Source: Candidatus Omnitrophota bacterium (lineage in GTDB: Bacteria; Omnitrophota; Gorgyraeia; Duberdicusellales; 4484-171). Taken from it: a stretch of DNA of 64,000 nt. Where the stretch lies: positions 77,570-141,569 of the forward strand of contig JBAZGN010000002.1 in assembly GCA_041652815.1 (NCBI GenBank), read 5' to 3'. Below the pieces are notes generated by a model, which was given only the letters and a program-made list of their open reading frames with translations, ran no database searches and had not been told where the DNA came from. Below, piece by piece: positions 18,001 to 57,000 of this stretch (its first letter is position 1; each line of letters begins with the position of its first letter). A program made the translations under genes and the position numbers.

Positions 18001-21000
18001 CTATGAAATTATCATTTAATGATTTGGGCATAACTCTTATTGATGCCCGCGGGATAGACGCAACACGCGAAGCGGATAGGATTTTAGAAATCATTAGCAG
18101 TATGCTTGAGGAAAGAAAAGCAAAGGGTTGCTCGCAAATTTCTCCAACTGAAGCAAGCTTAATACCGCGTAAGGTTTCTTCTTCAGTTGGGCCATGGGAA
18201 CAAAGCGATTTTACAGCAATTAAGCCAGGAGAAGAATTTGGTAAATTTGAGAGGGATGTTTTATGGAGTGCAATGCGCACAAGAGGAGAATATGCCGTAG
18301 TGAGCATTAAAGATAACAAAGCCACAGTTCTTGCCTTTAAGCATGGAAACTTGGCAAATGATTCCTTAAGCACTGATGAAAAGTTAAAGATTGCTAGAAT
18401 ATTTGCGGTTGCCAGAAATCGAGTTAAGCATTATTGCGACGAAGAACAGGGGGAGATTATTGTCCCGGCACAATTATATGTAGTATTTGCCTTGCCGGAA
18501 AAAGTTAATATAGCTGTTTATCGTGGCCGTCCGGCAAAAGAATGCATTTTGTCAATTGCTGTAAATGGAGAAATTATAGTAAATGGTGCGAGAACGCGTG
18601 GCACCCACATAGAAAGTATGCCCGTGATTTCAAAAGTTGCCTTTAGCGATATTATTACTTTTTATACTGTCCTTGCTCACATAGCGAATGCTTCCCGTGA
18701 AGCCAAGACAGTAGTTGTGGAGGGAAATGCAATAAGAGGACCCGCGAAGTACGAACTCCACAAAAACGGCCTTTTTAGACAATTGATAATTTTGGGTGGA
18801 TTGAGAGCAGAAAAAATAATAACTAAAGAAGACTACGCCCGCGCATACGGCATAATCGCTAAGGATTTGGAGATCACCGAGGCAATGCGGAAAGCGTGGG
18901 ATAGAACCGAAGGAGATTATTCTGCAGGAAGAGTTTGGCAAAACGAAAATAAAACTTCCTCACCTGCCAATGAGAGAGATATGGAATCACAAATAGCTGG
19001 CTGGCTCAATAAAGCAACTCCAGAACAAGAAATACCAGCCAATGGAATTGAGCAGCAAACTCAGGAACTTACCCGCTGCATAATAGATGCCCAGCTGCTT
19101 GACGTCGATGCAAAAGGTTTCCTGCGTGAACAACTCACCGATTTTAGACAAAACCATTCACGAGCCCCGATATTACAAACCGCCGCAATAGCCGCACTTG
19201 AAACAATTTATGCGGATAGGCCTGTGGAAATCGGAAGAGAAGGGCATATAACAAATAGGGTTTATATAAATGTTTGTCCGATAGAATGGCCAGAGGCAAC
19301 ATTTAATTTTCCCTCAAAAAATCCAACGGCATTTCATTTCTTGCATAACAGCCTCGATGAAGGCGAAAGAGTCGTCGATATCTACATAACTCAAAGAGCT
19401 TGGCGTGAAACCCCGGCAAGAAAATTATTCATAGCCATAAGCGTAGAAATCATCACTGTTCTTACCAAAAAATCTCCCCGAGAAATTCTTCTGCTCTTTA
19501 AAACCCCAACTAGTCAACAACCTCAAGATACTCAAGGTACCGGAGAAGAGGTTTCTTCATCTGTAACTTCGGCTGCTGCGATAGAACTGGCTAATGCTCT
19601 TTCTAAAATGGATGACGCCGAATATACCGGTTTTCTTTTAGGAATACTGCGTTCTGCACCGCAAGATTTAGATGTTGTTGAAACTGCGGTAAGATTTTTG
19701 CGATACCCTCTCATTTTCGGTATGCGCCCAACCGCAATTATCAACGCCTATATGCGGGCTTACGAACACTATTGCCAGGTACGTATACGCTCAGTTATCT
19801 TAGATTCATTTGCTTTAGCGAAGCAGAGAGTACGAAACCGAATAAAAGTAAAAGATTGGCTTTTAAGGATTACACAGGCAGAAAAAAGAAAAAATTTAAA
19901 CCATCTTGCTCGGCAGCTTTTAACTTCCCTTGAAAACCAAAACCTGCGCCAGGACGAAAGTTCTTCACCCCTTGAGCGTGAAGTAACAGTAAAAAGAGGA
20001 GAATCATTTAAAGCTTTAAGCAAAGGGGATGCGGGAGAAGTTTTATATGTTGCAGAAGGAGAATTAGAAGTTACGCTTGACGAAGCCGAAGTTATTCTAG
20101 GCCAGGGAGAATTACTTATATTATACATTACCCCAGATAGCGAAAGAGTTTCATCGAAGATAAGAGGTTATCAAGCAGTAGCGCGTAGGCCGGCAAAGGT
20201 AAGGCAAGTACAGGTTAATAATGGCACAGTCAAGGTAGATTTAATGTTACAAAGAGAATTGCTATTGACTACGGGTGATATAGTTGAAGAAGTCCGCCGT
20301 GCAAAAGATGGCGCACTTATAGCGCATATATATAGAAATCCCGATTTTCAGCTTAGAGTATTTGACCCGGAACGCGCGTCTTCTTCGGTTACGCATAATA
20401 CTAAGTTAAATCGGTTGCGGCAGTTTAAAGAGGGTGGCCTCTTTCCGTGGCTGGTGGAGCCCCCTTCTGCCGCAGCCGTTTCTTTACCCCATAATTACGC
20501 TAATCTCGTAGGTTGGAATTTGCTAATTAGCCAGGGGTTAGGAAATTCAGGCTCCTCACCCATCGAATCTAACTTTGCCCTGGAAGATTATCTTAAGCGG
20601 AGTAATGAAATTGTAGAAATAGATATGACAACGAATATATTGGCAGAGCAAGATAAAATTGTTGATAACTTGATGGCAGGAAAAGTTTTGAAATTAACAA
20701 ATTGGCCGCAAGGCAAAGCCGCGCCTTATGAGGGCAAATGTTTACCTGCCACGAAAAATGCACTTGATTATTTTGCCTATGTAGTCACCATGGCTTTTCG
20801 TCTTTTGATTGACACTAACATTGAGTTTCTTAGCTTTCAAAGAGTGCTTACTGAATTGATTGCTAATGCTTTAAACCACGGCAATAAGTTCTTTTTGCAT
20901 TTACCAGTTTTTATGCACATCGATACGCAGAAGAAGCAAATTACAATATATGATTTAGCCCAAGAAAGAGCAGAGGATGACGAATGGGACAAGCTAGTTG

Positions 21001-24000
21001 TAGAGTCGGCGGATGTATTGTTAGGTGGTGGCACTATAGGTATGGAACTTATCGAAGAATATTTTAGTTATGAGAGGAAAACTTTATTCGAACCAGTATC
21101 AGGAGTAAAACTAGGAACAATGGTTTTAGCTACCAGGAAAGCTTCGTCATCGCCAGCTTCTTCGCCTTCTTGGCAAGACGCAGTTTCTGCATCAAGAAGC
21201 ATTCAACCATGGACTATTGGCGGCGGTAGTTATTATTTTGTCGAAGTTAAAAAAGGTACGGCTTTTGATGTTTATGTATCTACAGATTTTATAGACATAG
21301 ACCCGGGCCTTAAACAGGCAGGTTTTAGACCGGGTTTAAATATTCAGAGATACGAGAACGTTGTTAATGCAATTAGGTCCTCGGTAAGGGGAGATTTAAC
21401 CGTGCCAGCCGGCATAGACCCAAGGCCTATAGCGATGGATTTAGCCATAAGCACATTTTTTAATGCCGAGGAAAGAGCCGTGTTGGAAGATCGAGGCATT
21501 GCCGGTAAAGCTATGCGCGCGCAGATAGAAGATGTTTCTGATTTATTGGCGGAGCTGTTTAGAAAACAAAATATAGTTGAAGGCTATCGTGGGTTATTTG
21601 AAGAGCAGCGCGCGCGCTGGAAGACAAAAGAAGTTTTGGAATATTTTGATGCGCCCGAAGGCAAGTATTTTATCCCACGAAAAATTACAAAAGATGATCT
21701 GTGTATGCTTGCGGCAGGCTTGGTGCATTTGGGGGCGGTGGATATTAATAGAGAAGTTGACTCTATGCGCGAGTTTCTTAGCGGCGTAGAGGCGTTGAGG
21801 AAGAGGCTTGCTCCTGTCGCGCTTTCTATGGCTTATACCGTCTTATGGATGAAGGATTCACGTGTTTACCTTCCTTACAAGCCTGGGTGGCCTTATCGTT
21901 ATCTGGTAAGCGATGAACTTTATGTGAAAGAAATAATCAGGGAAGGAATGGTTATCTCAGGCATAGGCAAAACGCCTTTTATGATTTTTGCCGACACTGT
22001 TTCAAGGGCTCATCTTGAAGATTTACATAGGCATTTGAGGGCGATTGATGATTATCGTGATATTCGTTTTTACGTTTTTCCCGCAAGTTGGGTAACCGCA
22101 AGGATTCTTATTGACGATGAAGGTAGGAGTATCCCAGTTGAGTTCTTAATCGATAATTCACACCTTGACTGCGTAATGCAATTTATCCCCAGCCATTGCC
22201 GCCATAACCAGCAGGCAGCTTTAGAAATAGACCCATTGTATCATAACGAATTAATTGCCAAGAATCATCCTGAATTCTTACTCTTCAAGTCCGAGCAAGG
22301 CCTTGAGTTTGTCACAATCGATAGTGATGAAAGGCATCTTAATCCGGCTAATGCCGGCCGGCCAACTCCTGAACGCGATTTCTTTGTCTTTGCTCCAACG
22401 CCTACAGGCCGCTATAAAACAATAGAAAACTTAGGGTTAAAACAGGGCCACTTTTTAGTTCTTCCTTCAAATCCCCCTCTTCGTTACCTTTCTTTGGGCG
22501 GAGGCTGGATTGATTGCACTATGACTCCGGTTGAGCGGGATTTACGAGGAATTTTACCTTTTATCCTAACGGAAGAGTTCAAGAAAGCCGTAGCAGAAGG
22601 AGAATCTTCATCGTCCGCTGCAGCCATGTCAATTGCCTGGCTTAATGTGCATGGGTTTGTTGAAGACGTGGCGCAAAAAGGAATTCTTGAAACGCAAGTG
22701 AAAACTGCATTAGATTGGTCGAAGCGCCCCATGCAGATTTTTAACATCCCGTCTTCTATACCTCACGAAGAAATCCGTGCCCATACTCGATATCTTTTTA
22801 GAGATGTTAGGCACCAGGTCAATACAATCGTTGCCTGTGGCCATTATTTTTATTATATGAGAGATGAAGGTGGATGCATGGAGCAGGCAATCAGAGGCCT
22901 ATGCGATACATTTGGAAATAAGAGTTTTAGTTTAATATTGCCTCTTGATTTGATTGAGCATTTAGCGCGAGAAGGTTATGTAGTAAGCAGAGAAGATTTA
23001 TTGGATGTTTTAAGCTCTACGCAGTTAGCCTGTCGCGCTACGCGTGTATTCTTTGACGGCGTTGTTTCGCAAGGCTGGAATCCATTGGAAGTTAGAAACG
23101 AAGCCTACTTTTATACAACTTCTCAAGCAATGTTGCAACATTTCATGTCTTTACCCTCAATCCCTGTAGCTACCGTTAACAAATGCGCAAGACAGAATGA
23201 TGGTAGTTTTTATCATAATAGAGAAGAAATTTCATCGCCGCTGTATACAGGAAATAATTTCAGAATACTTTTCGTCGCTTTGCCGGGATTTGATACGATT
23301 AATCCTTATGCCTATATGACTTTTGCATCTTTGATTGCGCCGCTTAAAGATAAAACATTTTTGAATAGGTTGTTAGAAAAGGCAGGCTTATCGAAAGTAA
23401 TTCTTGATAGGCCCATTGAAACAAAAATAATTTATCCTAAGAACTTACGCCAATTTAGCAAAGATTTAAATTCAGGGGGGCGCTTTGATGCGTTATGCGT
23501 ATCTGCTACAAGCCGCCAAATAGAGGAAGCTCTATTGGTAGGGTACGCCTTTATGCGGGCTCAACCTCAGGCTTTACGTATTATCGGCGGAGCTCACGCA
23601 AGCGTAAGGCCTTCCCATTTTCTAAGGAATAATATTTACCAACTTGTTTGTTTAGGCGAAGGGACTGAAACTTTAGCGGAAGCTTTAGCTCTTCGCGCGG
23701 CAGGTTTAAATGATTTTAGAAACTTGGAAGGGGTTGCTTTTAATGATGAAAAAGGAATAAATATTAACCGCAGGAAAAGTTTTCTTTTTGAGCTTGATGA
23801 GTATCCCTGGTTTTCAATTGTATTAAATGATTTGTTGCCTTTATCTACAAAGGCAGAACTTGCTGATACGATGTTAATTTTAGGCGGGATAGGTTGTCCG
23901 AATAACTGTTATTTCTGTGCGCAAAGAGCTATCCATGACGGGAAAGTAAGGCTGCGTAGCGGAGCAAGCCTTTTAAAAGAAATGGAATATTGGCTTGAAA

Positions 24001-27000
24001 GGAAAATCAGTATGTTTTTTATTTTACACGAAAATTTTACTGCCGATAAAACGCGTTTAAACGAATTCCTTTCTTTGATTGAGGGCAAAGGATTTGACTG
24101 GCAAGTCGAAGCTGACGCAAGATTAACTATCGAAGAATTACAATGTATGCAAAGATGCGGTTTAAGCGCCATAGAATTCGGCATTGAAAACGCAGACCCA
24201 AGAGTGCTTGCGGCAGTAAATAAGCATTTTGACGTTAACCATGCTTTAGCTTTGATTGCGGAAGCCAGGCGTTTAGGAGTTGTGGTAGGCGCATACTATT
24301 TAGCCGGGCTTCCTCAAGAAAGAAGCGACAGCATAAACGTTACGCGCAACTTTATGAGGCAAGCGGGATTCAACGGAAAAAGCACAACCGCAAATTTTGG
24401 CATCGCTATCCCCTATCCCGGAACAATAGCGTTAGAGGAAGGTTTAATTAGGCTGGTTGGAATGAAAGATGACGGAGAAACCAATTTTCCACCGCGCCGG
24501 CCTGCCGCCAGCCAATGGACTTATACTGAAACTGACGCCGCAACCGCAGGAGAAATTGGAACGCATTACGCTTCTTTACGGGCATTATACAATCTGCTTA
24601 CCCAGCAAGCAGATGCAGGTTTTGGCTCATCACCGGTTTCCTATTATTTTGGAAACAACCCCCTTGCCTTAACTACTTCGCCCCTAGCGCAAAGCCAAAC
24701 AGCTTTCTTAGTTAGAAATGGCGATGGGAAGATGGCGCGTCAATATCGTCAAAGTAATGTTTTTGACAGCTATATGTACCCCTGGCTTTTAAGTCAAGAC
24801 GATACTTTTAGAAGCGTAACACGCGTACGATTAATAGTGAAACCTGTGCATATTTTTGAATCAAAAAATTCTTCTGATTGGGAGCTTTTACCTGAACATA
24901 TCAGGCAAATATACGAATCCGGAAACGCTCTTTTTACCGGCTCAACAAATGAAATCCTTGCCAATCCAAGCAGATATTCAGCGCTGATGGTTTCAGGCAG
25001 AGATGAAGGTTTCAGAGGGCGCACAGGAATTTTGTTTTATGACAATAACCCGGTAATCGTGAGAGTCAACGGACTGGAATTTTTTGTAGAAATTAAAGGT
25101 TTAGGGGTAGCCGGCGGAGGATTTCCTTCGGTTCATATCCGGGATGGTTTTGATTATCAAGTTACCGGAGCACAGAAGCCGGCTTCTTCAATGAGAGAAT
25201 TTGAAAATCTGGAATACGAAAGAGCAGCCGATACTGCGCTTTTTTCCGCAGGGAATACTGCCCGCGCGCTTAGGGCGTTTACCTATGAATACAATGGTAT
25301 AGATTCCCTTATTGCGAGAAGTAATTTACATCCCAATCAGCAAGACAGTGCTTTATCTGAATTAGGCAACAAGTTAGGTATGGTATTAAGGCTTTCTCCT
25401 TCCAGTTTAAGATGTGCTTACGGGTTAGAGCTGCGCCATGCAAAGCTTTTGGGCGTAGCTTATAGCCAGTGGTTGTGTTCAGATGCGCCGCGTATTCATC
25501 AATTTCCGCATTTCGAAAATCTTATCGAATGGCACAAAGGACAAGAAGTCGCCTGGACAGATTATGCTGATGTGAAGTTTATATTCGAAGGATATGATTT
25601 TCACCCGCCTTGTTTTCATTTCGTAAGCCGGCTTCTTTTTACAGATTCAAACGAGCATCTTAACCGGCATATAGAATTATTTAGAAAGTTAGGAATAATC
25701 AAACAGGGAAGCGAATTTATGACTGGATTCTACAAGGGTTTTGCCGAATACGCCCGTTCAATAAATTGGATATCAGATGCTACAGCAGCCCGCATAAACG
25801 CCTGCGGCGACTTAGACGATTTTATCGATATTTTGGTATTTGAAGTTATGGCGCTAAGTATATATAAGTGGTTTATGGTTCTACCTACGTTACGGACAAT
25901 CGAAATTGAACGTAAGGGCAGATATGAAAATTTATTAAGCGCGCTTAATGCAGCTTTGGTGCGGGCGCAGGAAACCGGGGATAAGGAAACTACGGCAGCG
26001 TTAATTGCTGATATTGATAAATTTAATCAGGGAGGAGTTGTATTGGGTTGTCGGGCTATACGTAAGGCTTCTTCTTCACTTATGGCTGAATATCTCACCA
26101 TCTCCGGCAAGCTCCGCGCACCGCCGGTTACAGATGTCAGATGTCAGCTATTGGCTTTGGCTGAAAGGAAAAGCCAAACCACGGCCCTCTGGCCAGCAGC
26201 GGTCAGCGGAGAAGGGAGTTCGCCTGTTTCAACAGATTTAACCGGGCAAAAAATAGCAAGCCAACCCTGGAGAGATATTTTACAATTCAGTTTATCCGAA
26301 GACCAGTTTAGGAAAAGATTAATTTACTATTACGAGCGCCAATCTCTGAGAGATTTTATTCTTTCTCTGGATGATCCAATAGCAAGTCAATTATTAGATA
26401 CATTACGGCAAACTCAGGCTACTGATTTATATATCGACCCTGAAATTACCGTCGAAGAACTCGCCAGATTTTTCCAAAACCCTGCAACAAGCGATATTTA
26501 CACAGTTTTATATCAATACTCAACTGGGTTAAGACTTGAATTTAGAAACTATAAAACTCTGGGAAAAGCCATAGACAACATTGCGACTAAGACAATCGAG
26601 ACAATTGAAGGCTGGGATAGGGATTGTTTCAGTATGCTTGTTGGAGGCAGAGGCGTTCCAAATGCAGATTTGGCTGCAGCCTGTAGAAAGACTTTAGTTC
26701 AAGCGCGTATTCCTTTTTCCGGAAAATGCGCTTTGGCGATTGCCGAAGCGCTCCAAAGAAGTTTAGAATTAAGGCGCGCATTTTTCGCAGCTTTACCTAT
26801 AGGAAGAATAGACTGTTCCAGTGAAGCCCTGTTACCGTTACTTGGCCAAGAGGAATATCTGGGAAATATTTCGCGCTTGCTCGATATAGAACTAACGCCT
26901 CACTACGCAGAGAACGGTGGGAGAGACCCTATGCGGGTGAAAGACTTGTTCTGTAAATGCGCTGACGTAGCATTTAGCGAGCACGTATTAAGGCGGGTAG

Positions 27001-30000
27001 TAGAAATCGCTACTGCTCCGGTAGATCGCTTCAATAATTTTTGTTCTCTTTTAGCAGAGAAAAGGCAGCGCGAACAGGAGATAGTATTACATACCTTAAC
27101 CGATAACGAGCCTTTTGAGTTTGGAGAACCTGGAGCTGTACGGAAAGTTACATATTGGAATGACGGTACAGCTGATTTGCCTTCGCCATACCCACGTATT
27201 GCTGCTTTTGGCGATACGGGTACCTATAGAATTGCCAAAATAGTATTTCCTGATTATCGGCCGGGAATAGGAGATTTTTCAGATCTTTTGGAAGGGTATC
27301 TACTTTTAAGCAATCGCCAGAGACTGGCGGAATTAGCCGCAACCAACGAAAGTATTTTTTCAAAGTTTCCGCCGCACCTGCTTAGGGCGCTTGCCGGAGC
27401 TTTTTTCATCAGGGATATAAAGTATCTAACCGGCGGCCAAGACCAAAGCAATACTTTTACTGCGGTGTCAGATTTATTATTGAAGTTGCACGATGGTTTT
27501 GGAAGCCAATGGTTTAATTCTAAAAACAGAGTTACACAACCATTGCCGGAAATCTTTAATAGGGATTTTGATTACTTTACACCTACCCAGACCTACTTTT
27601 CTCCCGAAGAATTTTTAGCAAGCCATGATATAACCGTTACCGGGCCGCTTTGGGCTAGCGGAAGAGCGCTTTACGGAAGGCTGCCCGATGGTAACCGAAT
27701 TATGTTTAAGCTTGTTAATGAAGAAATTGCTCGTAACAAAAGTAGAAGCCGCAGTGAGGAACTGCGAGAATTAGAAACAGAAGCCAAGCTTCTTGCTTAT
27801 GTAGGGTCTAATAGAGCCGAAGTCGGACTGGAAGGCAATTATCCTGTTCCGGTAAAGGCTTTTCCCGATAGTGAAGAATACATTTTTGGGATGCATTCTT
27901 TAGGCGCTCTTTCGGCTGGACAGAGAAGAAACCTTATGTTTAATCCGGCCAATGAAACTTGCGGTTATACTTGCATATGTTACATCGCCAGCGAAGACTG
28001 TTTTGTTTATCTGGATGACCCACGTCAGGAGTATTTCCCAGAAGAGTATTTATTGCGGGGTATCCGCGACCGCAGCCGTTTGTTGGCTAAATTAGGGTTA
28101 GCTTTAAACAATTGGGATAGTTATGTGCATCGGCCTGGCTTGGTATACGATTGGTCAATTGAACGCGGTGCAGGCACAATTCCTAACTGGATAAATAATG
28201 CTCGTTATACCAATTATAGAAGAGCGGGAATTCTTGACTGGGGCCATGCGATAAAATTGGGTACTAATTGTAAGTTTAAAACTGTACGCAGCCACTGGGG
28301 CAATATTCCGTTTTTCGCCGTACTTAGCGAAGCAGCTAATATGTGGAAACATTACGATTTTACGTTTAAATTTTACTATCCCGAAGAAAGAGCGTGTTTC
28401 ACGCAATTTATGCGGCAGGCCTACAAACATTCTTACGAACAAACTACCGACACCTATACATATCTTTTTGACGATAATCGTTTAATTGATTGGGATAATA
28501 TTGCGGACAGGTTTATGTATGAGGCAGGTTCGGTAATCCGGCGTGAAATATATATGCCGGGCGATGAAGCCAAAGAAAGGAAAGAGAAAGAAGGCGAATT
28601 TATGAATTTTGATTTGGGTTATGGCCACGGAGTTTTCCCCTGCCCTGAACTTATCCGGGCAACGTTTATTGTAAGCACCCTTGCACTTATCGAAATGAAT
28701 GTGCGTAACGGCGTAAGCTCATCTTCGGTTATTCTCCAAAGGCCTTATCTTATTCAAGGCAGGGTTTTGGAGCGATACACAAAAAGACGCATCACAACGC
28801 CTTTAGCAATTTCCGGAACAGAGTTCTTAGTATCTTCAGTAGATATTTTTTCTCCGTCTTTCGAGCGCCCCAGAGGCATTATTGAATATGTAAACGAAGC
28901 TAAGTTTATTCTTGTCGAGATGGAAACAGAAGAGGCAGTAAGAAAAGCTTACTTTTATCCTGGAGGCCCGGCAATAGCTGTTCATGGTGAGACCCAGGAA
29001 GAAAAATTATGCGCAGAAGGCATACCTCTTAATCTAATTATCAATGCGATGTTCAAAGGCGCCGACATATCCAAAGTTTTAGTTATTAGCTGTAATGATA
29101 ATAACGGAATAATAAAAGATACAATCGTTCCTTGTGTATATAGCAGTCAAGGTATATCAAGATTACAAGGAGAAAGTCTAATGACACCTATCAACATTTT
29201 CACGCATATAACGCTGGAAAATACACAAGTTGTGCCGGTAGATAAAGATTGGCATATAGCTTTTTGCCGCGCTGGAGGCCTCTGGTTAACTACCGACAAT
29301 AAAGAAGGCTTATTGTTTCCGATTCATTCCTTTAGCCCAACAACTGCGGTTCTACAAGGAATAATGTCAGAAAATCTTCAAAACGATAATATTTCTTCCC
29401 CGGCAGCTTTAACTGGTAGCCTCAAAACCGCAAAGCGCGCACCACCGGTTTCAGCTATCAGCTATCAGCTTTCAGATATTAACTCAAGCGGCAGTTCGCC
29501 CCTCGCAGCCACCCCAGAGTTGTCGAAAGCCATTTACCAACTTACCTTAAACGCCCATCAACCGGCTGGAACGCGCTGGTCAGGCGAACATTTCTTTGCT
29601 ACTTATCTGCCTACTTTAGCTTCGCTGCTTTTGCCTAAGGAGGAGGGTACGGTTCAAATCGTAAGAGGCCGCCGTAGACAGGTTAAACTTAATTACAGTA
29701 TTTCTTTAACCTTGTCAAAAGAAATTCAGGACTATATTCAATCGCTTCTAAAGATTACAGGTAACGGCCCAGCCGCATTTTCCTGGAAGAAGAAAGAAGA
29801 AGAAATAAAACAACTGGTAGCGGAACGAAAACTATATGAAGATATCGAATTAATATTGAAACCCGTTAATCTATGGACAGCCGATGATGTCCGTTACGTG
29901 CATAATTGGCATTGGCAGATTGCCTGGGAATATAAATTCGGGCATAACGAAAACGGCAACCAAGTTCCCTGGTGGCCGGCTTTCACCCAACTTTACAAAA

Positions 30001-45000: not shown

Positions 45001-48000
45001 GGCAAGCTCAAGGGAAAGATTTAAGAAGCCAATGCATCGCTGAAATGAATTTAGCGCTTTTTGAGAGAGGGTTTGCTGAAAACATAATACATGATGAATT
45101 ATTACAACGGTTTTTCGGCGCAATCGGCGGGCTGCTTACTTTCGAAAATTATTTTTTACAATTTGCTGCCTCAGGAAAACTTGTTGATATGATTCGAAAT
45201 ATTATTGGGATTATGGTTATGCATTACAACCTAAGCTTAGAACAAGCTCAGCTTTTCAGTAACGCTATTAATCAGTTTGTTTCAGCTAAGCTGCGGGTTA
45301 TACAGGGTGTTGAAATAGTTGGGGAAGAGCATTGGGGATTGATAGACGATGAAGCTAGTTCATCGCCGGTACCGGCTGCAAACCATACAGAAGGTTATTT
45401 TAATTTTTATGCCGGTAACCACAGTGAGCAGTTAGAGTTTCATCAAAAGCAAGGCAGAGCGCGTTTACCTACTTCGCAAGAGAACAGATATTTAGCGCCA
45501 CAATTAGAAGCGGCACTTAACTTTTTACGCAGAGAAGATGCTAAAAATTCCCCGGCTTATGCGCCGCCGATAAAAATTATCGATACTGTTGAAATTACTT
45601 TCGGTGTTTGTTTCGACGGACAATATATTTTTGTCGAAAGTCCCCTAATTGATAACCCTCTTTACAATTTAGACGAAATATTCGTTTATATATTTAAATC
45701 CGGTTCAGATTTTTCCAGATGGCGGGTTCAGGCAAAATTTGCCTTATTTGAAATATTTGGCTTAAACAAAAAAACACCGCACAGGATTTCTTCCCCGGTA
45801 AATCTTAGCGACCTAGACCTGATTAAGCAAGTTAAGATAGGAAGCGGCGGTTGGTCTGATATCTTTGTTGCCCCGCACAAGGTGACGGGTATTAGGTATG
45901 CCATTAAGGTATACGAGGAAACCATTGTTAGCGGGTTCAATATGATGCGCGTAGCAGGAGAGGAGCGTTTTCGTATTATTAACCATGTTATGAAACTTTG
46001 CCGTCAACACCCGGAACTGGTAGAAAAAGGTTATATGTTGCGCTATTATTCAAGAGGAGTTTGCTATGTCGAAGAAGATAAAATAATAGAAGAGTCCGCT
46101 GGCAGGAAGGAGCGCCCCTACGTTATCATGGATTATATTGAAGGAGATAACTTATTTGATTTGATGATTAAAGAGGAACACGCGGCTGTGTTAGACGAGA
46201 GAGATACCCGACAATTCCAATTTGATTATTGGACAAAAAGGCTACGTTTAGCCCTTAATGTGGCAATAGCCGTTTCAGCATATCATCATAGCGGATTATT
46301 AGTAAAAGAACTGAAGCCAGGAAATATCATGGTACGGCCGGATAGAACCGTCTGCCTGATAGATTCGGATGGCACGGTGCCAAAGGATTATGATTGGGTG
46401 AGCAATCCACAAGGCATTGAAGATAGGGTAAGGCGTATCCATACGGACTGGTATTCTGAAGGCCACGAGCCTTTTGGTGCTATGTACGACAGGCAAGAAC
46501 AGCTTGAGGAATCTGTAAAGCTATTCACAGAGCAATGGGATATTTATAGTTTCGGATTAACGATGTTTGAGATACTATGTTCGACTTTTGTTATGCGTTT
46601 CATGCCTACAGATGATGATAGCGATATGGAAACGGGTATTCAGGCACTGAGAAATTACCTAGATAGAATGATAGAGGATATCAAAAAAAGATGCAGGTTC
46701 GACCCATTAATGTATGAAACTGAGTCAGAAGTATGCCGTATTATAAGAATGTGCATCGAAAAAGAGCGCAGCAAGCGTTACGAAAATATGCAAAAGGTAA
46801 TAGCGGATTTTGAAAGACAATTACAGAAATTAGAACAAGTGTTTCCTAAAGCCAAAGTTCCCCGTGTCAGCTCGCCTACGGAAAAAAATCAGCTTCAACC
46901 ACAATTTGCGGTAAGCTTTGATGCCGAAAGATTAATTTTAAACAACGCCGCAGATTTAAAAATTGGCGAACTCCCAACGAAGGATATTATTGATATTGCT
47001 CATTTAACTATGCCACGCAGTACAATGCCGGACAATAGGCTTTTTACTTTCGCAATTCAAGAATTAGAAAAAAGAGAGTGGAAAAGTTATTGCGGTTATC
47101 TGCTCGATTCCGACTTGGAATATCTTACGGTGTTCGGAGACAATATTTCTAATTTAGATGGTTGTTATGAAACCGGAGATTATGATGAAGTTATACAGGC
47201 ATTAGGCCTTTGGGACTATATCCATGATTTCTTGCTTGGCAATGCCGCAGGCGTTTATCAACACGTTAAAAACGGCTGCTGGGTTTGTTTAGGTAAACAT
47301 ACAATTATTGCTGATAGCAACGACGTTATTGAGGTTGTAACTTTTGACAATGGAAAGGGGTTTAGGAATCGAGCTGGCAGGCAAGCCAGGATAGCAACTG
47401 CTCTCAAATATGGAAAAACTTTTGATGATGAAGGTATGGGCACAGGATTAAATCACTCTTTACGTTTAAGCGATTTGTTCAGAATTACCCAAGGAACCGA
47501 AATTGCTATTTACCAAAACCGCGGTTATGCGCTTGAGTGGGGCAAAGATAGGCGTGTTTTTTACGCTGATAAATTACCGCTTCAGCCCGGCGTGCTTACC
47601 GAAGCCTGGTTTTATAAAGAAACCCCAGAAGGAGATTATTGGCAGCAATTAGTTACCGAAGAGCAAGAAAGGCTTCCCCATTTGTTATCAACCGCTGGCC
47701 GCACTAGCTCGCCCAGTTTCGATAAAAGCACGTCAAGTAATTTTTATGCTTATATTCGTCAAGGGCTTATTGATACGAATACCCTTAGCCCCGATATTGC
47801 AAATAGAATTAGCGATGAAGAATTAGGGGCATTGGTGCGAATTACAATCACAAGGGAGCGCATAGCCATAGATGATAATACCCAATGCATGTTAAGTATG
47901 ATTACGCGTTTAAACTTGGCTCAATCAGAGTTGTACGATATTATGATTTTTATTGCGCGCTACCTGCCCCGTATTATATCCAATATATTTAGTGATGAAA

Positions 48001-51000
48001 TTGTAGATAATGAAGACGAGATACGAAAGTTTTTTAGTGGAAATCTTTGGAATGCCGAGCGGCAAACTTATGGTGTTGGGGGAGGTAGAGAGCTTGTTCG
48101 TTTAGCTATTGGACGCACTATCAATTATGTAATTAGCAATGGCTTTGATGCTGCGACCAGAACAATCATAGATGTTGGCGCCGGAGAAGGGTTTTTGGAA
48201 ACACTTATTACGCCCTGCGCAATCAATAACGCGGAGGTCATACCATTTGATATTAGTCCTCATTTCCTTTCGCGCATACCCAAGCAGGGGCCCGTTAAAA
48301 GATGTGTAGTTGGGGATGTTTACAACTTTACGCAATGCCTACAAGACAGGGGCATAAAAGAAGCCGATGCAATCATTGCTTTGGATAGTTTTGATACCTT
48401 TGAAAATCTTCCTGCGGCAACGCAGCAATGCTTTAGCCTTCTTCGAGAAGGAGGCAAGATATTTATTTTTCAATCACTTCGGGCAGACCCTCGGCCGAAT
48501 ATAAAAGCAGCACGCAAGCAGGGCGCTGTATATTGCCCAAGGATAGACGCATTTTTCGAAAATCTTGAAGCAGCAAAAGCTGTTATGTATCCTTATTTTG
48601 TTGCAGAGACTAAAGGAAGAAGCGTTGATCCTACTGAATTTTTCTACGCGCAGTATACAAAATTGCGCATGAAGTTAGAACTTAATATTACCACAACTGT
48701 TTATTTCCCACGGCTTATTCAGGCTACAGAAAAAGCTGGTTTCAACATTTTGTACGCAGCAGGCCAAAAATCAAATATCCTCACAGAACGCTGCGCCCGT
48801 CACGAACAGGCAAAGACAGACGATGGGGCTATGATTGTTCCGGACAGGGTTAATATGGTCGATTCTTATTATGGTCAGATAGGCTTGTTAGATATTCCTG
48901 GCGTGCCGCCTGGGAAAATACTGGAGCAGGCTGAAGTAATGATCGTCATTGCGGAAAAACCATCTGCCAGCTCACCCTTAGTACCAGATTTTATGACAAA
49001 AGATATGCGTAATTTAACTGATATCGCACATAATGTTATGCCAGGTACGGCTTCTTTTGATATGGAAAAGTTCAGAACAGCAATGCGTTCCTTACGCCGA
49101 AAAGGTTTTAAGGCAGGATTTATCTCATCCAGAGGTGCCGTGAAACTCACAAAAACAGTATTAGGCAGAGAAGTTGTTGATTTTGTATTCAGTTATGATG
49201 GCTTTGATTGGAGCGGCAATGACGTACCTTTTAAAATTATAAGCAGACATTTAGAAATAGGGCATTTTTGCCAGGGCTTTATTGAGCATCATTTTGATAA
49301 TTTTTTCACTCATGTAAATAAAGGATACGACGTAATTTTAGTGAAACAATTCATGAGCGGCAAACAACCGCCTCTTTTTGTAATAGTATCTTTCGATAGC
49401 GGAAGAGGGTTTCAAGACAAAATATTAAACAGGATAAAGATAGAAGAGGTATTAATTAAAACACGCTCTGCAGGTTGGGGAGGTGACTGCGGCGTTGGTA
49501 TTAATTATGCTCTTGAGCGCTGCGCACTTTTTAGAATAATGCAAGGAACAGAGTGTGCAATATATAAAAATCCCGTTTATAGGCGTCACTTTCCTTTGCG
49601 TCAGCAGATATTCTATGTAGATAGTTTGCCTGAACAAATAGGAGTTTTTACCGAAGCCTGGTTTTATGAAAATAAGCCACCAAGAAATTACTGGCAAGGT
49701 ATGGTAAGCAATGAAATAGAACGGTTTAAGGAAAATTACCCTCAAGCTGCGATAAGAACGCCTGCGCAGGTTTCTTTGCCGGAAGGCGTTTCTTCCCCCG
49801 CGCAAGAGCTTACTCGGGAGGATATTGACAGGAACATTACTGCAACTTTAAGGCGCTTAAGAAACTGGAGGCATCGGGTTATTCATTTATCAAGAAGCAG
49901 CGACATTATAAAAAGATTCTTTAGCAGCCGTAATCTTTATGAAAGAATAGCCGATTCTTTAAATAATATGGCAATAGAAATACATATTCTAAGAGCTTTG
50001 CCTCATAGCGGATATTGGCAGATAGAAGAAGGGCGTCTATTAAAGATTTTTATAGAGAGAAAACTCTGGTCTAACGGCCCGTGGCGGGGAAAAGTAGTCT
50101 GGTTAACAGCTGCTGCCATAACCGCAACCTTTCCTGAGCCGAAATCACGTGAGATTCGGCCTACTTCTCCTGAAACTAATCAGGAAATTGAAGAAGATTT
50201 CCAAGATTGGTACGCTTGCGAAGCGCGTAATCTTGCAGGGGAGGAGAATGATAGTTTGCCCGATGGGTTTTCCGAGAAAGCTTTATCCGAAATCGCCGGA
50301 GAGATGGCAGGCATAGAGGATTTGTTTGTTTCCATAGAGGTTTCTTCCCCGATTATTTATACTATCGGCCAGACTGAGTTAAGTTTTAGGCGAGGCAAGG
50401 CAAAATTTAATAAAAATTATTCTTTATCTTCCGCCGTATCGTCAGCAGCTATCGGAGCAGAACCGGAATTTCCTGCACAATCATTGCCGGATGCTAAGCG
50501 ATTCTGCCGCGCCTATGAAAGTTTTGAGAGCGTAATTAGAGAAGAAGCCATTAAGGAGAGGGCGCTATTTGTCGAATCGTTAGGTTTAAGAAATATTTCT
50601 TTGTCTTTTGCGAAAGTCCGCTTGCCGGATGGTTCGGAAACAAAAGACGATGATTTTCATAATTTCCGAGACCTCGAAGCATTGGTCCAATACCTGGTCA
50701 AACAATTTGTTATGAACGGCGTTCACGTAAAAGATTATATTAGCAAGTCATACCCGCTTAAGCTTGATATTATTATGGTGCAAGAAAAAGATTTGACGGT
50801 TGAAGTGGTAACCCCAGGGACAACGATGGATCTTGAGAAAACCAGCGCTTTTGGGTTTTCTACTATGGTGAATCGGATACCCGGCATAGGCGGCAGAGGC
50901 ATTGCCCTTTATTACATTTTGGCTTATTTTAAGCAATGGGGCATCGGAAAACTTGAGGTATATTCCGGAGAAAGTAAATGGGAGGCATCGAAAGGCTTGA

Positions 51001-54000
51001 TTAAAAAATCAGCAGTTCCTTTTAGGGAAGGAGTTAGTGTAAAATTTTCCATAAAGGCAAGCAGCCACGATATAGCTTCAAGCCCTGCTTCCATAAAAGT
51101 TTATTTGGTTTATCCTTATGGCGATACAGTTTCAATTAGTAAAACCCCATCCCCTGTTCTTTCTAAAAGCGAATACCCAAATGGTTACAGCCTTACCGTT
51201 TGGACATTCAATCATTTAATAGAGCCGGGCCTTTGGTGGGATAATGAGCGGTTTGAAAAAATAGTAAGGGCGGTTAAGCAAAATCAACCGGACATTTTAT
51301 TACTACAGGAGACTACCGTAAGATGGGGCGGGAATACAATCTTTAATAGCGGTTTTGAAATTGCCCGTGCATTACGGGCGGATAATTGTCAACCTGGTTG
51401 GCAGGAGCATCTCAAAGATACAGATTGGGGAAGAACGGGTAATGCTATTATCTGGAGTGATAAACTTGTCAGGATGGATGACAATGAAAAATATTATTGT
51501 GACCTTACTTCCCGCAAGACCGGCGAGAATTTTCTGTTGGGAGTCCGCCTGGCAGTAAAAGCTACCGGTCACGAATTTTATGTTTTAGCAACCCATCTTT
51601 GCCCTTTTTCAAGCCAGGAAAGGGGATATCAACTTGAACAGTTGATTTCATATATCGAAAATAATCTTAAAGCAGGAGTCACTATTATCCTCGGCGGCGA
51701 TTTCAATACTGCGAGCGAAGTAGAAACAAAGGCTATGGTAGAAAGATTAAGCGCCAAAGGTTTTAGAGATGCCGAGCAGGGTTTATATGCCGGTAGATAT
51801 CAATATACCTGGGAGCCTACTAACCGTTACGTATCGGGGTACGATAAAGCCCATTTTGGCCCTAGGGGCTGTGACCGGATTTTTGTCCGTGGACCGCCGG
51901 AAGTTAAAAGTTTTGAAATAGGTTTTAGCAGCGAAGAAACAGCTCTTTCTGACCATAGTGTTCCCGTAGCAACATTGAATATTCCTTTATTTGACCCGCC
52001 TCAAATACCTTGGCTGCTCTGCGCAGGAGATTCGATATTACATGGCCAAAAGTATCCACACGGCTATGTTAATTGCCGGACGCCCTTGGAGCATAATTTG
52101 CGCAAAGCAGAAAGCCCCTATGTCTTTAGAGGCCCTTTTCATGATCCTTACGTTGTCAAAGACCAACAAGCTAACGCTCATCTGGCTTGGAGCGGTATCT
52201 ATACTCATAATGTATATGAAAACCACCCCTTGCTTCCTTATGGGTTGTACGAGCTTATAGAAAGATATCTTGCCGTATCTATGCCGCTTCGTAACCACCC
52301 TCGTTCGGCAGTTTTTATCCATATCGGCACCAATGACGTATCTGATTTAAATGTTTCTTTAGACGAATCAGTTGCTTACGTTAAGAAGATGATTGATTTC
52401 ATCGATAGCTATGACCCTACCATCAGCGTATATGTTGCCTTGATTATCCCTAGAAACGGCGATAACTCAAGAACCGAAGAATATAACCGAAAACTTAAGA
52501 AGATGCTTTTAGCCTACAAAAGGGGAAAAACCAATCTTTATATTATTGATATCTATGGCGCATTTTTGAGTAACCCGGACTGGAGAGGGAATTATTTTTA
52601 TCCTTGGGACCACATACATCCTAATGGCGCAGGATATAAAGCCATTGCCAGAGCCGCTTCCGAGGTAATAGTTAAGTCATCAAGCCCTATCGAAGACAAT
52701 GTCCAGCTACGGCAGGGTGGGGTGCGATTTAAAGATTTTTCCGCTTTTTCGCAAAATGAAGCGATTAGCTTATTCCCTTTAACGCAAATTAAAGCAGTGT
52801 TTGATTTTCTATCGAACGATTTGTATGTGGCAAAACATCTCGGCGCTAGAATATCTTTCTTAACTGACGGCGATTGTCGTTGTTTCGCAATTCCCTTAAC
52901 GCAAGATGGTTTTGTTACCCTAGAACTCCTTAATGGGGTGAATTGCTTAGCCAAATTAGAGGCGGCTATCGATTCCAATAAAGGCAATATTTATTTTAAG
53001 CCTTGGTTAAGTGAAACACCAAACCTGCGTCATAAAGGGGTAGGTTCGGCATGGGCCAGAGAAATTATTTTGCCTTATTTCAGCAGGCAAGGCGCGAAAA
53101 AAGCAATCATTTATTGGCAATGCTCACATTCTGAATATGAACATCTATTGGGAAAGCTCGTCGGCGCTGTAAGCTATGTAACTTCAACTCAAGGCCGAAC
53201 TGCCTATATGGTCGGTGAAATTGACTTGAAAGATTATAGTTCATCTCCCTCTATGCTTTTGTTGGAATGGTCATTCAGCGGAGAAAAAGATAGAAAAAAA
53301 GCAGCAGAGATGGCCACATATTTTGGTAATGAGCTAAGGAGGAAGTTAAAAGAGAAAAATTTTGATTACCTTACTGCCGGGGTAGGAAACGCCTGTTGCG
53401 AAATGGCTTTGAATATGATGGTGCATGCCGGAGGCGGAAGCATCGAAATATTCTACGATGAGGATTTAGAGGGCGTACAACATCTCAAGGCAATAGGCGT
53501 AGACAATGGCCCGGGGATGGACAATCCGAATGAGTTATTGCAGGAAAGCATAAAAATACACAGAGCATGCCGCGCCGGCACAGGCGATGGATATGCCGGT
53601 ATAGGCATAAGAGACATTGTGATATATCCAAATGGGGTTATTGTTAATACAAAAATCGAAACGAAACCGGTAGCTGAAAAGTGGATTAAGATAGGCGCAA
53701 GCTTAAGGTGGCCGGTTGGAATTAACCGGATAAATATGGTTGAATTACATCAAGAGGAAGAAAGGATAGAATCAGGTCTCGCATTAAGATGCGTTGGTAA
53801 TCCCGAAATCGAGAGAGGGACCGAAATTATTCTAACCTGGAAACAAATGCCGGATGAGGAAATGTTTGAGCTCGAGGAAGAATTACCTGTCGAGGAAAGG
53901 ATTAGCTCGCCGTTAAACCGTAATACTACTTACATTCAACAACCGATAGATAGTAATGTAAACTTCAGCGCCTTTGATATCAAGGAATTAGCCGCGATAA

Positions 54001-57000
54001 ACCCTGATGGCCTATATCTTAATGTGTCGTCAAGTTGTATCTCGGACGCGACTATACCGGAAAAAATAGAGCTAGAAATTCCTGTTGAATGGTATTCGGA
54101 TGATTCCGTGGTATCAATAAAATTGGCTACCCCCCTGGAAGGGGACCCTATAATCAGATATGCACAGGCATCAATTACTCCTCTTGAATATCAAGTTGAT
54201 TGCCTTTTAGAAATCGTTGAGCATATTGAGCCTAATGCTGTGATGCTTAATTTAGGCTGCGGTGTAAACCTTATACGAAACAGATGGAAGCTACGTGTTT
54301 TAGTATATAATTTCGATTATCAATATTCAGCAGTATGCCCCGAATATGAAGCGGCACGTATCGGTGCGAATTACAGAAAATATGATTGCAGTGAATTATC
54401 TTCTTGGGTGGAAAGCTTTAAAGTCGGTAATCCCCATTGCTTAATACAATTCATTCTTCTTGCCAAAGATATGTGTTTTTGGTTTGGCCAGTATTTTTCG
54501 GACAAACGGTCATTGTACCAGGCCAGGCATATTCACGGGATTTTGAGAAACGCCTGGAAAGCGCTTGAAGGGCCTGCTGCCTATATAATCGTAACTTCTC
54601 CGGGTTGCGATAAGTATTTGCAATATCTTTCAGCTTTTTCTCCCGGATTGACGAAAATTATTGTTGTCGGTGCAGCGCTTGGAGATTTCAAAAAAGCAAA
54701 AGCTGTATTATTTCAAAAAGAGAGCACCAGCTCACCTCTTTTTGCCAAAACTTCTCAGGCGAGCCAGATGGTTTTACGCTGCGTGGACACTACCAAAGAG
54801 CCTTGTTGTATCAACCATCAGGCAGTCAGGGATATCGTTGAGTTATGCGAGAAAGATAATAGTTTTCTGGGAATATTTGCTGATGTTATCGTTAAATATT
54901 TAAGTGACGATAATTTATTATTGAGAAATGTACTCTATGAAATCGTTGAAATGTTAAATGGCCATAGTTGTGCCAGGAAGTTGCCTACGCTTTTCGCTGA
55001 GTTATTAGCCAGAAGGCTTCCGGGGGATGAATTGGTAAAATTATTAGCTAAGTGTTCTCATGTAAACGCAGAAATGGTGCCGGACGACAATAAGACCACA
55101 TTCCCGCCATATGTTAAAAGCGGATATGTGCAAGGCGATATTGATTTAAGCCATGAAGAGCCGGGTTTAATTTTAAAATTATATAGGCATGCACGATATT
55201 ACTACATAGAATATCAGGGTAAAAAGGCAGAATATAAAGGAAAAATAATTGGCTTTGTACAAACCTACCGTCCCAGCGTAGAAGACATAATATTTTTAGG
55301 CATTCGTGTTTTTGAGAGAGTTGAACCGGGAATAGGCACTACAGTAATGCGTTGGGCCGCAGAATGGGCAGGCAGTAATGGTAATGTTGTTTTTCAGTAT
55401 CCTGTTGATGAAAACTATATCAGATTTATGCTGCACTGTGAGCGCGAAGGAATATTAGATGCTATAGAAATTGCACTGCTTCCTATTGCGGAAATACCGT
55501 TTATACCCCATTCTGCTTTATGCCGCTTGCCGCAAAAATATACACCGGACGAACAATCTTTCTGGCAGAGAGTAAATAATATTGAACATGTTGCGGCGTT
55601 AAGGCCTAAATTATCTCCCGGCACAAATATTTTTGTCCGGGGAAAAGTAACCTCAAAAAATACCAGTTCAACCGAGGCCAGCTCGCCGCTTACTGACGTA
55701 AATGCATATCTGACAAGTTACCTTGCAAAATATGTAACCAGAAGCAGTAAATTTGGAGAAAAGGAATTGAAGCTGCAAGAGAAATACGATAGGCAACTAA
55801 CTTTGAATTTGCCAAAATTTGATGAGTCTGATTTAGCTGTCGCCATAGAACATATTATGGATAATGCCGTGCATTTCTCACCGCAAGGAGGAGTGATAAC
55901 CGTAATGACAAGCTATGAAGTTAAAAATCGAAAAAGAAAAGCGGTAATCGCGATATCCGATAACGGTAAAGGTATTGATGTAGCGCAAATTGTAGAACGT
56001 GCGCTCGCAAGAGGGGTTATCTCCAAAGAAAAATTAAGAAAAATGACATATAGACAAATATTCCAATTGGTTTTTTTACCCTTTATTACCACCAAACCAC
56101 AAGGCTTTGGAGGCTGTGGCCTAGTTTGGGCGAAGATAGCTATAGAAAGGAATAAAGGAGCTATTAAAATACATTCAAAATGGGGTAGCGGCACCACAGT
56201 ATTTATTACCTTATCTATTATGCACATCGCTTCTAGCCCCACCCTCGAAGAAAGTGACGAACAAATAAAAGCACGTATTATGGCTGTTATAGAGGAGTAT
56301 AACTTTTGTCGCCGCCGAGCGCGTGAAATTTGGTTGGAGTTCGAACCGAATTTTGATTTACCGCTTGAAATTTCCGGAATGCTTGGAGTAGCTACTGGCC
56401 ATATTGATAGAATTCCTCCGGAATTTCCTACAGCATTAACAATGTTGAGAAAAGGCATATCTCGATATGAGCGATTTATGGATGAGCTTAGAGGGCGTAA
56501 TACAGAAGTAACTCTTGCCAAAGCCGAAGCATTAAATAGCGCATTAATTCTTCTTGATTACGCAAAATCTAAGTTAGAATCAGCTGTCTCTATGCTTGAA
56601 GCGCATCTCAGCACGAATGGTACCGAAAATACTTCAAGTGCTGTTTCGTATATAGAAGGGAGAGAATCATTCGAATATAAATCGTCCATCAGACAAAATA
56701 ATAATTCTCGGTTGCGGCAGAGTTCAAAAGGGCGGTTTGCCTCTCCGTGGCTGGTGGGGGCCGCCCTCTCTGCCGTAACCGTTTCTTCGCCAATACAGAA
56801 TGGTAATGGAGATAATTCAGAGAAACAGAACAGTGAGTTTACTACCGCAACAATGCGGTTACGACGCCTCAAGAGCGAAGCGGAAATTATCCAAAGCTTA
56901 AAGTCGCTTCTGGCGCAACTGCATTTGTTAATGCCCAACGATAATGAAAATGGCAACGGGAATATATATCTGCCAATGTTAGCCAACCAAATTGATTCAT

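Follow-up and report, generated by a model that had tools for sequence, protein, structure and literature searches.

The window analysed here, a stretch of 64,000 nucleotides (nt) from a Candidatus Omnitrophota bacterium (contig JBAZGN010000002.1), contains three copies of a very stable hairpin within a single reading frame that runs through it from end to end. The hairpin is a new, undescribed structured element, and selection acts on the fold of its sense strand. It belongs to an old and widespread family, all members of which known to date come from Omnitrophota-type sequences and, in the present sample, lie almost always within giant multi-module genes. We give about an even chance to the reading that it is a cis-acting mRNA hairpin, read via its constant apex, at the junctions between modules; the mechanism described below is a proposal.

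A first-pass annotation of this DNA had placed a conserved element at three sites, and all three were confirmed, each on the plus strand (Table 1). It had described a 9-bp stem enclosing a loop of about 40 nt. The stem exists, but it is 12 bp long (CGGUUGCGGCAG/CUGCCGCAGCCG), and what had been taken for a loop folds into further helices. This basal stem (P1) is followed by an A/U-rich bulge of 5-6 nt on the 5′ side only, above which lie a middle stem (P2), a short P3 helix (CCUC/GGRG) and a CC/GG clamp enclosing the loop GUGGCU. Copy 3 had been said to keep its stem in spite of a changed 3′ arm; in this arm (CUGCCGUAACCG) one U·G pair has become U-A and one G-C pair has become G·U, and all 12 pairs are indeed intact. 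The stem of copy 2 can be extended by the flanking AUAGAU/CUAUAU. Folding of the three segments gave one long hairpin each, 4 to 6.5 standard deviations more stable than its own dinucleotide shuffles (z = −4 to −6.5), and the minus strand of the copies folded 8-11 kcal/mol worse than the plus strand. Among 12,784 segments of 80 nt from the window, the top three in stability were the three hairpins (z = −7.7, −5.7 and −5.5), the first of these values belonging to copy 3. The apex string CCGTGGCTGGT occurred three times exactly and once with one mismatch in the window, compared with an expectation of 0.41. A covariance model run with filters off detected exactly three copies (65-72 bits) and no further ones in the 64 kb; the next plus-strand match reached 15 bits, and the sole scores in between (18-23 bits) were those of the three hairpin sites read in antisense.

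Copies outside the window were collected by two pattern scans. The pattern GGTTGCGGCAGN{15,40}CCGTGGCTGG matched 63 loci in 185,579 species genomes. The complete hairpin was present in 19 of these (20 matches) from 12 genome bins, ten of them labelled Candidatus Omnitrophota, one Planctomycetales and one unclassified; the remaining loci were partial chance matches in GC-rich genomes. A metagenome scan, for which the pattern was the apex plus GCCGCAGC only, yielded nine additional confirmed copies, spread over seven loci if L083, a duplicate of L066, is left out, and viral contigs gave no matches. From each matched locus 8-14 kb of sequence was collected, and here copies were added by the covariance model alone at L046:2431-2512(-), L046:4171-4268(-), L008:2859-2937, L023:5063-5138(-) and L067:4005-4083, together with a second copy in L085. 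In total, about 37 copies were found beyond the window. A recent local duplication was ruled out by the spread of copies over 12 bins and seven metagenome loci.

The surrounding domains had been called unrelated, in agreement with the flanks of 500 amino acids (aa), which showed no detectable similarity between different copies; the element therefore behaves as a dispersed repeat. Despite unrelated flanks, the elements themselves can be 93-100% identical. In locus L051 two copies separated by 1083 nt are identical, and in the pair L011/L041 the identity is bounded exactly by the ends of P1, the few differences being compensatory. Copy 1 and L001 agree over about 16 nt on the upstream side and over a short downstream patch, but no further. 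Directly beside the hairpin, A+T makes up about 80% of the sequence. When the flanking di- to tetranucleotides of the copies were compared, no target-site duplication was seen, and protein homology searches for orthologous sites or a census of the hairpin peptide gave no matches. In L008 a run of N (an assembly gap) begins exactly where the second hairpin copy ends on its 3′ side (position 2937 onwards), which suggests that short-read assemblies of giant genes break at the repeat.

Within the family the element is 67-88 nt long, with a GC-rich basal stem of 11-14 bp. In an alignment of 35 copies, which was fitted to the covariance model, 95.2% of the pair cells showed standard pairing, compared with 82.6% in column shuffles, and none of 500 shuffles reached the observed value. 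Double compensatory changes were present in 14 of the 22 pairs (96 cells), and pairing dropped to 36-64% when one strand was slid by 1-3 columns. P1 occurred in three versions, all of which pair: NGGUUGCGGCAG/CUGCCGCAGCCN, CGGYCGCUGYGG/CCGCAGCGGCCG and, at L067:4005-4083, CCCAGAUGCAAAG/CAUUUGCAUCUGGG. The sequence of P2 differed in nearly every copy, even inside one genome, and yet was about 90% paired. On the sense strand, 120 G·U and U·G pairs were counted and only 11 A·C or C·A mismatches, indicating that the sense strand is the folding strand. Decayed copies were almost absent from about 270 kb of collected sequence. Full divergence of P2 within a genome with pairing retained, together with this near absence of relics, argues for selection on each resident copy. 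Free synonymous variation with loss of the stem was not what the family displayed, but its opposite, and the functional nucleic-acid structure suggested by the first-pass annotation is supported by the conserved, compensated fold. The apex ACCUCUYCCGUGGCUGGUGGGG was identical in every copy found; since both collection searches had demanded part of it, this invariance is partly built in. No other hairpin family with the same basal stem and a different apex was present in the collected loci, where 22 of 22 P1 stem pairs enclosed the apex.

The element had been described as lying inside an open reading frame (ORF). It is in frame, but the ORF is not a local one: frame 3 of the window comprises 21,332 codons without a stop, compared with 768-1,859 stops in each of the remaining five frames (six-frame scan). 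Being located inside an ORF, the hairpin must be translated. Each of the 33 in-ORF copies is in sense, in a frame that stays open across the entire collected locus, and all 33 have a P1-to-P1 length of 3n+1 (67 to 82 nt), are stop-free and share the same codon phase. The single intergenic copy (L066:2407-2480(-), the same locus as L083:311-384(-)) measures 68 nt from P1 to P1, i.e. 3n+2, and contains an in-frame TAA. As the in-ORF copies keep the frame and are free of stops, and the intergenic copy does neither, the element is translated rather than spliced out or bypassed. Read in the other five frames, the same sequences are stop-free in 35-79% of copies, so that a stop-codon filter acting on random insertions fails to explain the single orientation and phase.

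The peptide added by the hairpin is incidental. In copy 1 it amounts to 22 residues between a flanking N and V. Identical RLRQ codons had been noted in the three window copies, and this was borne out: each copy uses CGG TTG CGG CAG (P = 9e-4 per copy from the codon usage of the ORF), even though CGG accounts for 11% of the Arg codons and TTG for 18% of the Leu codons of the host ORF, and a fourth RLRQ without a hairpin (nt 63264) is encoded by AGG CTG CGC CAG. The apex CCGUGGCUGG is read as SVAGG, PWLV or RGWL, depending on the copy, i.e. in three frames, and the hairpin is therefore not a peptide motif. A shared WL peptide pattern had also been reported, but copy 2 reads CCGTGGCTGG one base out of register (F-R-G-W-L-D) with respect to copies 1 and 3 (F/S-P-W-L-V), and the pattern is thus an accident of nucleotide conservation. 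A further suggestion was that of a recently propagated peptide cassette. In the form considered here, RLRQ...AAA would serve in cleavage or recognition or as a mini signal peptide, and recent duplication would account for the nucleotide identity. The 5′ arm does always encode x-[RG]-L-R-Q or R-x-L-[WR], and the AAA of the 3′ arm resembles an AxA site. However, in addition to the three frames of the central part, the stem of type C hairpins encodes the unrelated AQMQRF...FASG, codons are invariant where a peptide motif would drift, and copies with covarying stems occur across many genomes in what is an old family. The cassette is essentially excluded.

Three translational devices were ruled out as well. 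A stimulator of programmed frameshifting would be expected to follow a slippery heptamer (X XXY YYZ for a -1 shift) at a distance of 5-9 nt, and no conserved site of this kind was found in the AT-rich left flanks of the copies; a stop in the -1 or +1 frame within the bulge was seen, by eye, in only about half of the copies. A translational bypass element, as in T4 gene 60 or the mitochondrial byps, does not agree with in-ORF copies that preserve the frame and contain no stop, properties which the intergenic copy lacks. An internal translation start after the Shine-Dalgarno-like GGUGGGG has no start codon downstream.

The intergenic copy lies about 100 nt past a TPR gene and ahead of an ABC permease gene, in sense to both, in a housekeeping neighbourhood. 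With UUAUUUUUUC downstream, it resembles a terminator, and it occupies a position where a terminator or stabiliser would sit. A TATAAT-like box was observed about 75 nt upstream of this hairpin, which might accordingly end a small transcript. Between the hairpin and the next gene (L083:150-320 (-)) there is also a long AT-rich imperfect inverted repeat, CCAATAACCAA...TTGGTTATTGG.

The window is a piece of an Omnitrophota-type giant gene joining unrelated enzyme modules. Pfam searches showed radical SAM/SPASM, HAD, nucleoside hydrolase, HD, Glu dehydrogenase, B12-radical SAM, CBM48, GH77, MutS_V, SEC-C, Pkinase, methyltransferase, EEP, GDSL, HATPase and other domains. With its one frame and its chain of unrelated enzymes it agrees with the Omnitrophota giant genes, of up to 85,804 codons, described by West-Roberts et al. 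(10.1101/2023.11.21.568195) and Seymour et al. (PMC10066038). Whether the transcripts or products of such genes act whole or cut up is an open question according to West-Roberts et al. 2023 (10.1101/2023.11.21.568195). The coding strand is rich in G over the whole window (G 14,879, C 11,939; GC skew +0.11), which fits a giant gene co-oriented with replication. From this skew, the sense strand is probably the lagging-strand template too, in which case the hairpin could also fold as single-stranded DNA. A part of the window (aa 5112-5291, nt about 15336-15875) and L071:8789-9328, from a metagenome giant gene, were 72% identical in amino acids and 71.5% in nucleotides; the identity set in abruptly, with unrelated sequence upstream in both, indicating a module-wise, mosaic evolution of giant genes. 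The hairpin is absent from this border.

The modules are accompanied by a second recurrent signal, the Ser-Ser-Pro (SSP) peptide motif [GAVIT]-S-S-P-[VALITS], which occurs 59 times in the 21,332 aa of the window compared with 3.65 expected, with a mean spacing of about 360 aa; SSSP alone occurs 11 times compared with 0.25 expected. Examples are found at aa 1158 (nt 3477), 1391, 3608, 3842, 6850, 11587 and 18927. Every Ser and Pro codon is used freely in it, so that SSP is a true peptide motif and provides an internal contrast to the fixed codons of the hairpin. Two paralogous HAD-hydrolase modules (aa 1159-1394, nt about 3477-4184, and aa 3609-3845, nt about 10827-11537; 42% identity) have alignment limits which coincide exactly with SSP motifs at both ends, and in a second paralogous pair (aa 15660-15891 and 16336-16575) SSP motifs lie 11-37 aa from the ends. 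SSP is located at the edges of domains and may be a module separator or a cleavage/linker site of a giant polyprotein. The motif is unmentioned in the giant-gene preprint.

The hairpins tend towards the short AT-rich linkers near the SSP motifs that separate modules. The median distance to the nearest SSP was 21.5 aa, and 62% of the copies lay within 30 aa of one compared with 25% of random positions; in the window, the motif at aa 6850 follows copy 1 by 24 aa, that at aa 11587 precedes copy 2 by 12 aa, and that at aa 18927 stands directly 3′ of copy 3. Hairpins of types B and C are usually preceded by a hydrophobic, transmembrane-like stretch and a conserved KK[AT]LS[FI]-I peptide, so that this subtype may form part of a larger membrane-anchor module that is itself repeated. 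Overall, the association with transmembrane helices is weak, with 21% of copies within 15 aa of one compared with 6% of random positions, mostly of types B and C.

A cis-acting mRNA hairpin is favoured because pairing is kept despite diverged P2 sequences, relics are nearly absent, the orientation follows transcription and one copy occupies a terminator- or stabiliser-like site. In the proposed mechanism the mRNA would be the folded form that matters, and a trans-acting factor would read the constant apex. The hairpins might punctuate the giant transcript as exonuclease barriers, processing sites or pause points at module junctions, by analogy with repetitive extragenic palindromic (REP) elements or the RNase III sites between cistrons of phage T7. 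New copies would arise, or existing ones be homogenised, by copy-and-paste or gene conversion in the style of a dispersed repeat. Several points weigh against such an mRNA function. The particular RNA role is one that we infer from sequence, and the asymmetry in favour of the sense strand would also fit single-stranded DNA on the lagging-strand template. The constant codon phase is left without explanation by an RNA role. That near-identical copies occur between unrelated flanks is a sign of mobility, for which a host function is unnecessary. The spacing of copies is very irregular (117 nt to 22 kb), which is odd for regular punctuation, and only some 25-40% of them have a U-tract after the hairpin. 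Finally, the invariance of the apex is supported only modestly by the P1 pairs enclosing it and by the six copies that were found independently of the two collection searches, all six of which carry it.

The chief competing explanation is that of a selfish palindromic repeat, non-autonomous and without host function, resembling Rickettsia palindromic elements (RPE), REP elements or miniature inverted-repeat transposable elements (MITE). It would be mobilised by a hairpin-recognising enzyme, possibly of the HUH type acting on single-stranded DNA, and would persist in giant genes since in-frame, stop-free linker insertions are harmless there. Such a repeat explains identical copies in unrelated contexts, including the pair in L051 and the identity in L011/L041 that starts and stops at the stem ends, and copies do occur both within ORFs and between genes, as those of RPE do (PMC1779305, PMC10969869). 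The AT-rich immediate flanks, the assembly gap right after the L008 copy and the GC skew, with the sense strand suggested as lagging-strand template, are also in its favour. Such a reading fails to account for orientation, phase and absence of decay: antisense copies are missing and a single codon phase is used though the other frames are so often open, P2 has diverged within a genome without losing its pairing, and no target-site duplication marks an insertion. We consider a purely selfish repeat unlikely, although it is to be taken seriously.

Two other explanations assign the hairpin a different function. A terminator or pause hairpin sensing the coupling of translation to transcription would be melted by a close ribosome and would cause pausing or termination when the ribosome lags, aborting wasteful transcription of a gene of >100 kb. 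The GC-rich 12-bp stem is followed by UUUCUUU in copy 1, by UUUCUUC in copy 3 and by similar tracts at several loci, the tail of the intergenic copy is of the textbook type, and an element that is sense-only and must be translated through would suit this role. The U-rich tail is nevertheless confined to the minority of copies mentioned above, that of copy 3 simply encodes the V-S-S of its SSP motif, and the in-ORF copies follow no stop codon. The sites were not flagged by a simple terminator scan, whose counts were at or below shuffle expectation, and the invariant apex is left unexplained, all of which makes a coupling-sensing terminator improbable. A DNA-level recombination site, an option also raised in the first-pass annotation and here taken as resembling attC and folded as a single strand, could serve the in-frame gain, loss or swap of modules and so produce mosaic giant genes with abrupt borders of homology. 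As the copies are all directly repeated and share one codon phase, recombination between any two would keep the frame, and the conserved outer stems, the variable but paired internal segment and the one-sided bulge are as in attC. The RYYYAAC/GTTRRRY boxes were, however, not visible in an alignment inspected by eye; the conserved part is the apex, the reverse of attC; the hairpin was missing from the only mosaic border that was inspected; elements that resemble each other have neither flank in common; and no integrase is known for the element. A recombination site is likewise regarded as improbable.

With regard to the favoured mRNA hairpin, a more far-reaching version may be put forward with considerable doubt: the hairpins could be the RNA punctuation of a polyprotein-like giant mRNA, with a dedicated factor that reads the apex and cuts, stalls or anchors at junctions and, together with the SSP separators, defines the real expression units of the 'archaeovorin' giant genes; alternatively, they could be phase-matched sites for in-frame module shuffling. 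A covarying hairpin that the ribosome must cross, placed in inter-module linkers, is in any case a concrete and testable cis-signal, and the SSP separator is another. Clean examples of a nucleic-acid structure maintained in coding sequence, to which the protein has to adapt, are rare, and the element is one of them.

Among known systems the closest analogues are RPE, REP/SPRITE-type repeats and the RNase III sites of T7, but the element lacks defining features of each. RPE are likewise dispersed palindromic hairpins, in frame and translated within unrelated ORFs and also found between genes (here 33 copies and one copy, respectively), for which no transposase or target duplication is known (Ogata et al. 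2000, via PMC10969869, PMC1779305). They are, however, elements of 100-150 bp from Rickettsiales in which a single frame encodes one conserved peptide (PMC10969869, PMC1779305), whereas the present element is shorter, comes from bins nearly all labelled Omnitrophota, has a core read in three frames and covarying stems, and is almost confined to giant genes in this sample, always in sense. REP elements, bacterial interspersed mosaic elements (BIME) and SPRITE are GC-rich hairpin repeats co-transcribed with genes and credited with mRNA stabilisation, termination and protein binding (PMC3733652, PMC2817692, PMC10969869), and the intergenic hairpin copy looks just the same. REPs are 20-40 bp long, extragenic and present in both orientations, with a GTAG or CGTC tag and RAYT transposase partners (PMC3733652, PMC2817692, PMC10969869). 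The hairpin described here is 67-88 nt long and has no terminal tag (its 5′ end is NGGUUGCGG or CGGYCGCUG), and 33 of 34 copies are in ORFs, all in sense.

The basal stem could count as the terminal inverted repeats of a MITE, but the flanks are not duplicated. With attC the element shares conserved outer pairing, a variable paired inner segment, unpaired bases on one side, a strand-specific fold and direct orientation along unrelated modules. It differs in having no R/L box consensus (by eye) and an apex that is conserved instead of variable, and in that its copies are translated and lie 0.1-22 kb apart. No hallmarks of attC, REP or MITE were found in the hairpin copies. The RNase III hairpins of T7 early mRNA are two-part structures with an internal asymmetric loop, which punctuate a long multi-product transcript and leave a protective 3′ hairpin. 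They stand between cistrons with their own starts and stops, whereas the hairpin elements have neither around them, so that cutting would yield non-stop mRNAs. In Rfam 15 no family reached its gathering threshold anywhere in the window, and in E-value mode only generic hairpins were obtained, at 10-19 bits and far below threshold. A hairpin, stem-loop or palindrome is unmentioned in the giant-gene preprints and in Seymour et al. (PMC10066038), and none of the ten top-ranked papers combining Omnitrophota with repeat or hairpin terms dealt with such an element.

Table 1. Positions of the hairpin copies, their parts and associated features (window coordinates unless a locus is named)
Feature	Position	Strand	Remarks
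Host reading frame	3..63998	+	Six-frame scan; Pfam shows a chain of unrelated enzyme modules
Hairpin copy 1 (67 nt)	20412..20478	+	-39.6 kcal/mol, z -5.0; covariance model 70 bits
Copy 1, P1 5′ arm	20412-20423	+	Fold
Copy 1, bulge UUUAAA	20424-20429	+	Fold
Copy 1, inner helices	20430-20466	+	Fold
Copy 1, loop GUGGCU	20447-20452	+	Fold
Copy 1, P1 3′ arm	20467-20478	+	Fold
Hairpin copy 2 (67 nt)	34812..34878	+	-40.2 kcal/mol; covariance model 64.8 bits
Copy 2, P1 arms	34812-34823, 34867-34878	+	
Copy 2, apex CCGTGGCTGGT	34844-34854	+	Apex in shifted frame (LFRGWLD)
Hairpin copy 3 (73 nt)	56709..56781	+	-48.9 kcal/mol, z -6.5; covariance model 71.9 bits
Copy 3, P1 arms	56709-56720, 56770-56781	+	Fold
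Copy 3, apex	56745-56755	+	Fold
SSP motif (TCT TCG CCA)	56784..56792	+	Directly 3′ of copy 3; aa 18927; one of 59
Hydrophobic stretch and KK[AT]LS[FI]-I	L071:7880-7910; L085:1800-1833; upstream of L046 2512(-) and L023 5138(-); L067:3975-4005		

Two very stable hairpins that do not belong to the family were also observed in the collected loci, at L066:123-212 (-) and L015:6366-6455 (-). One of the two is a near-perfect 26-bp palindrome, CCCCGUUGCAUUGCGGGUAUGCAGC...GCUGCAUACCCGCAAUGCAACGGGG, with -58.9 kcal/mol for its 90-nt window, and the other, a 17-bp stem, lies some 100 nt away from the element of L015.

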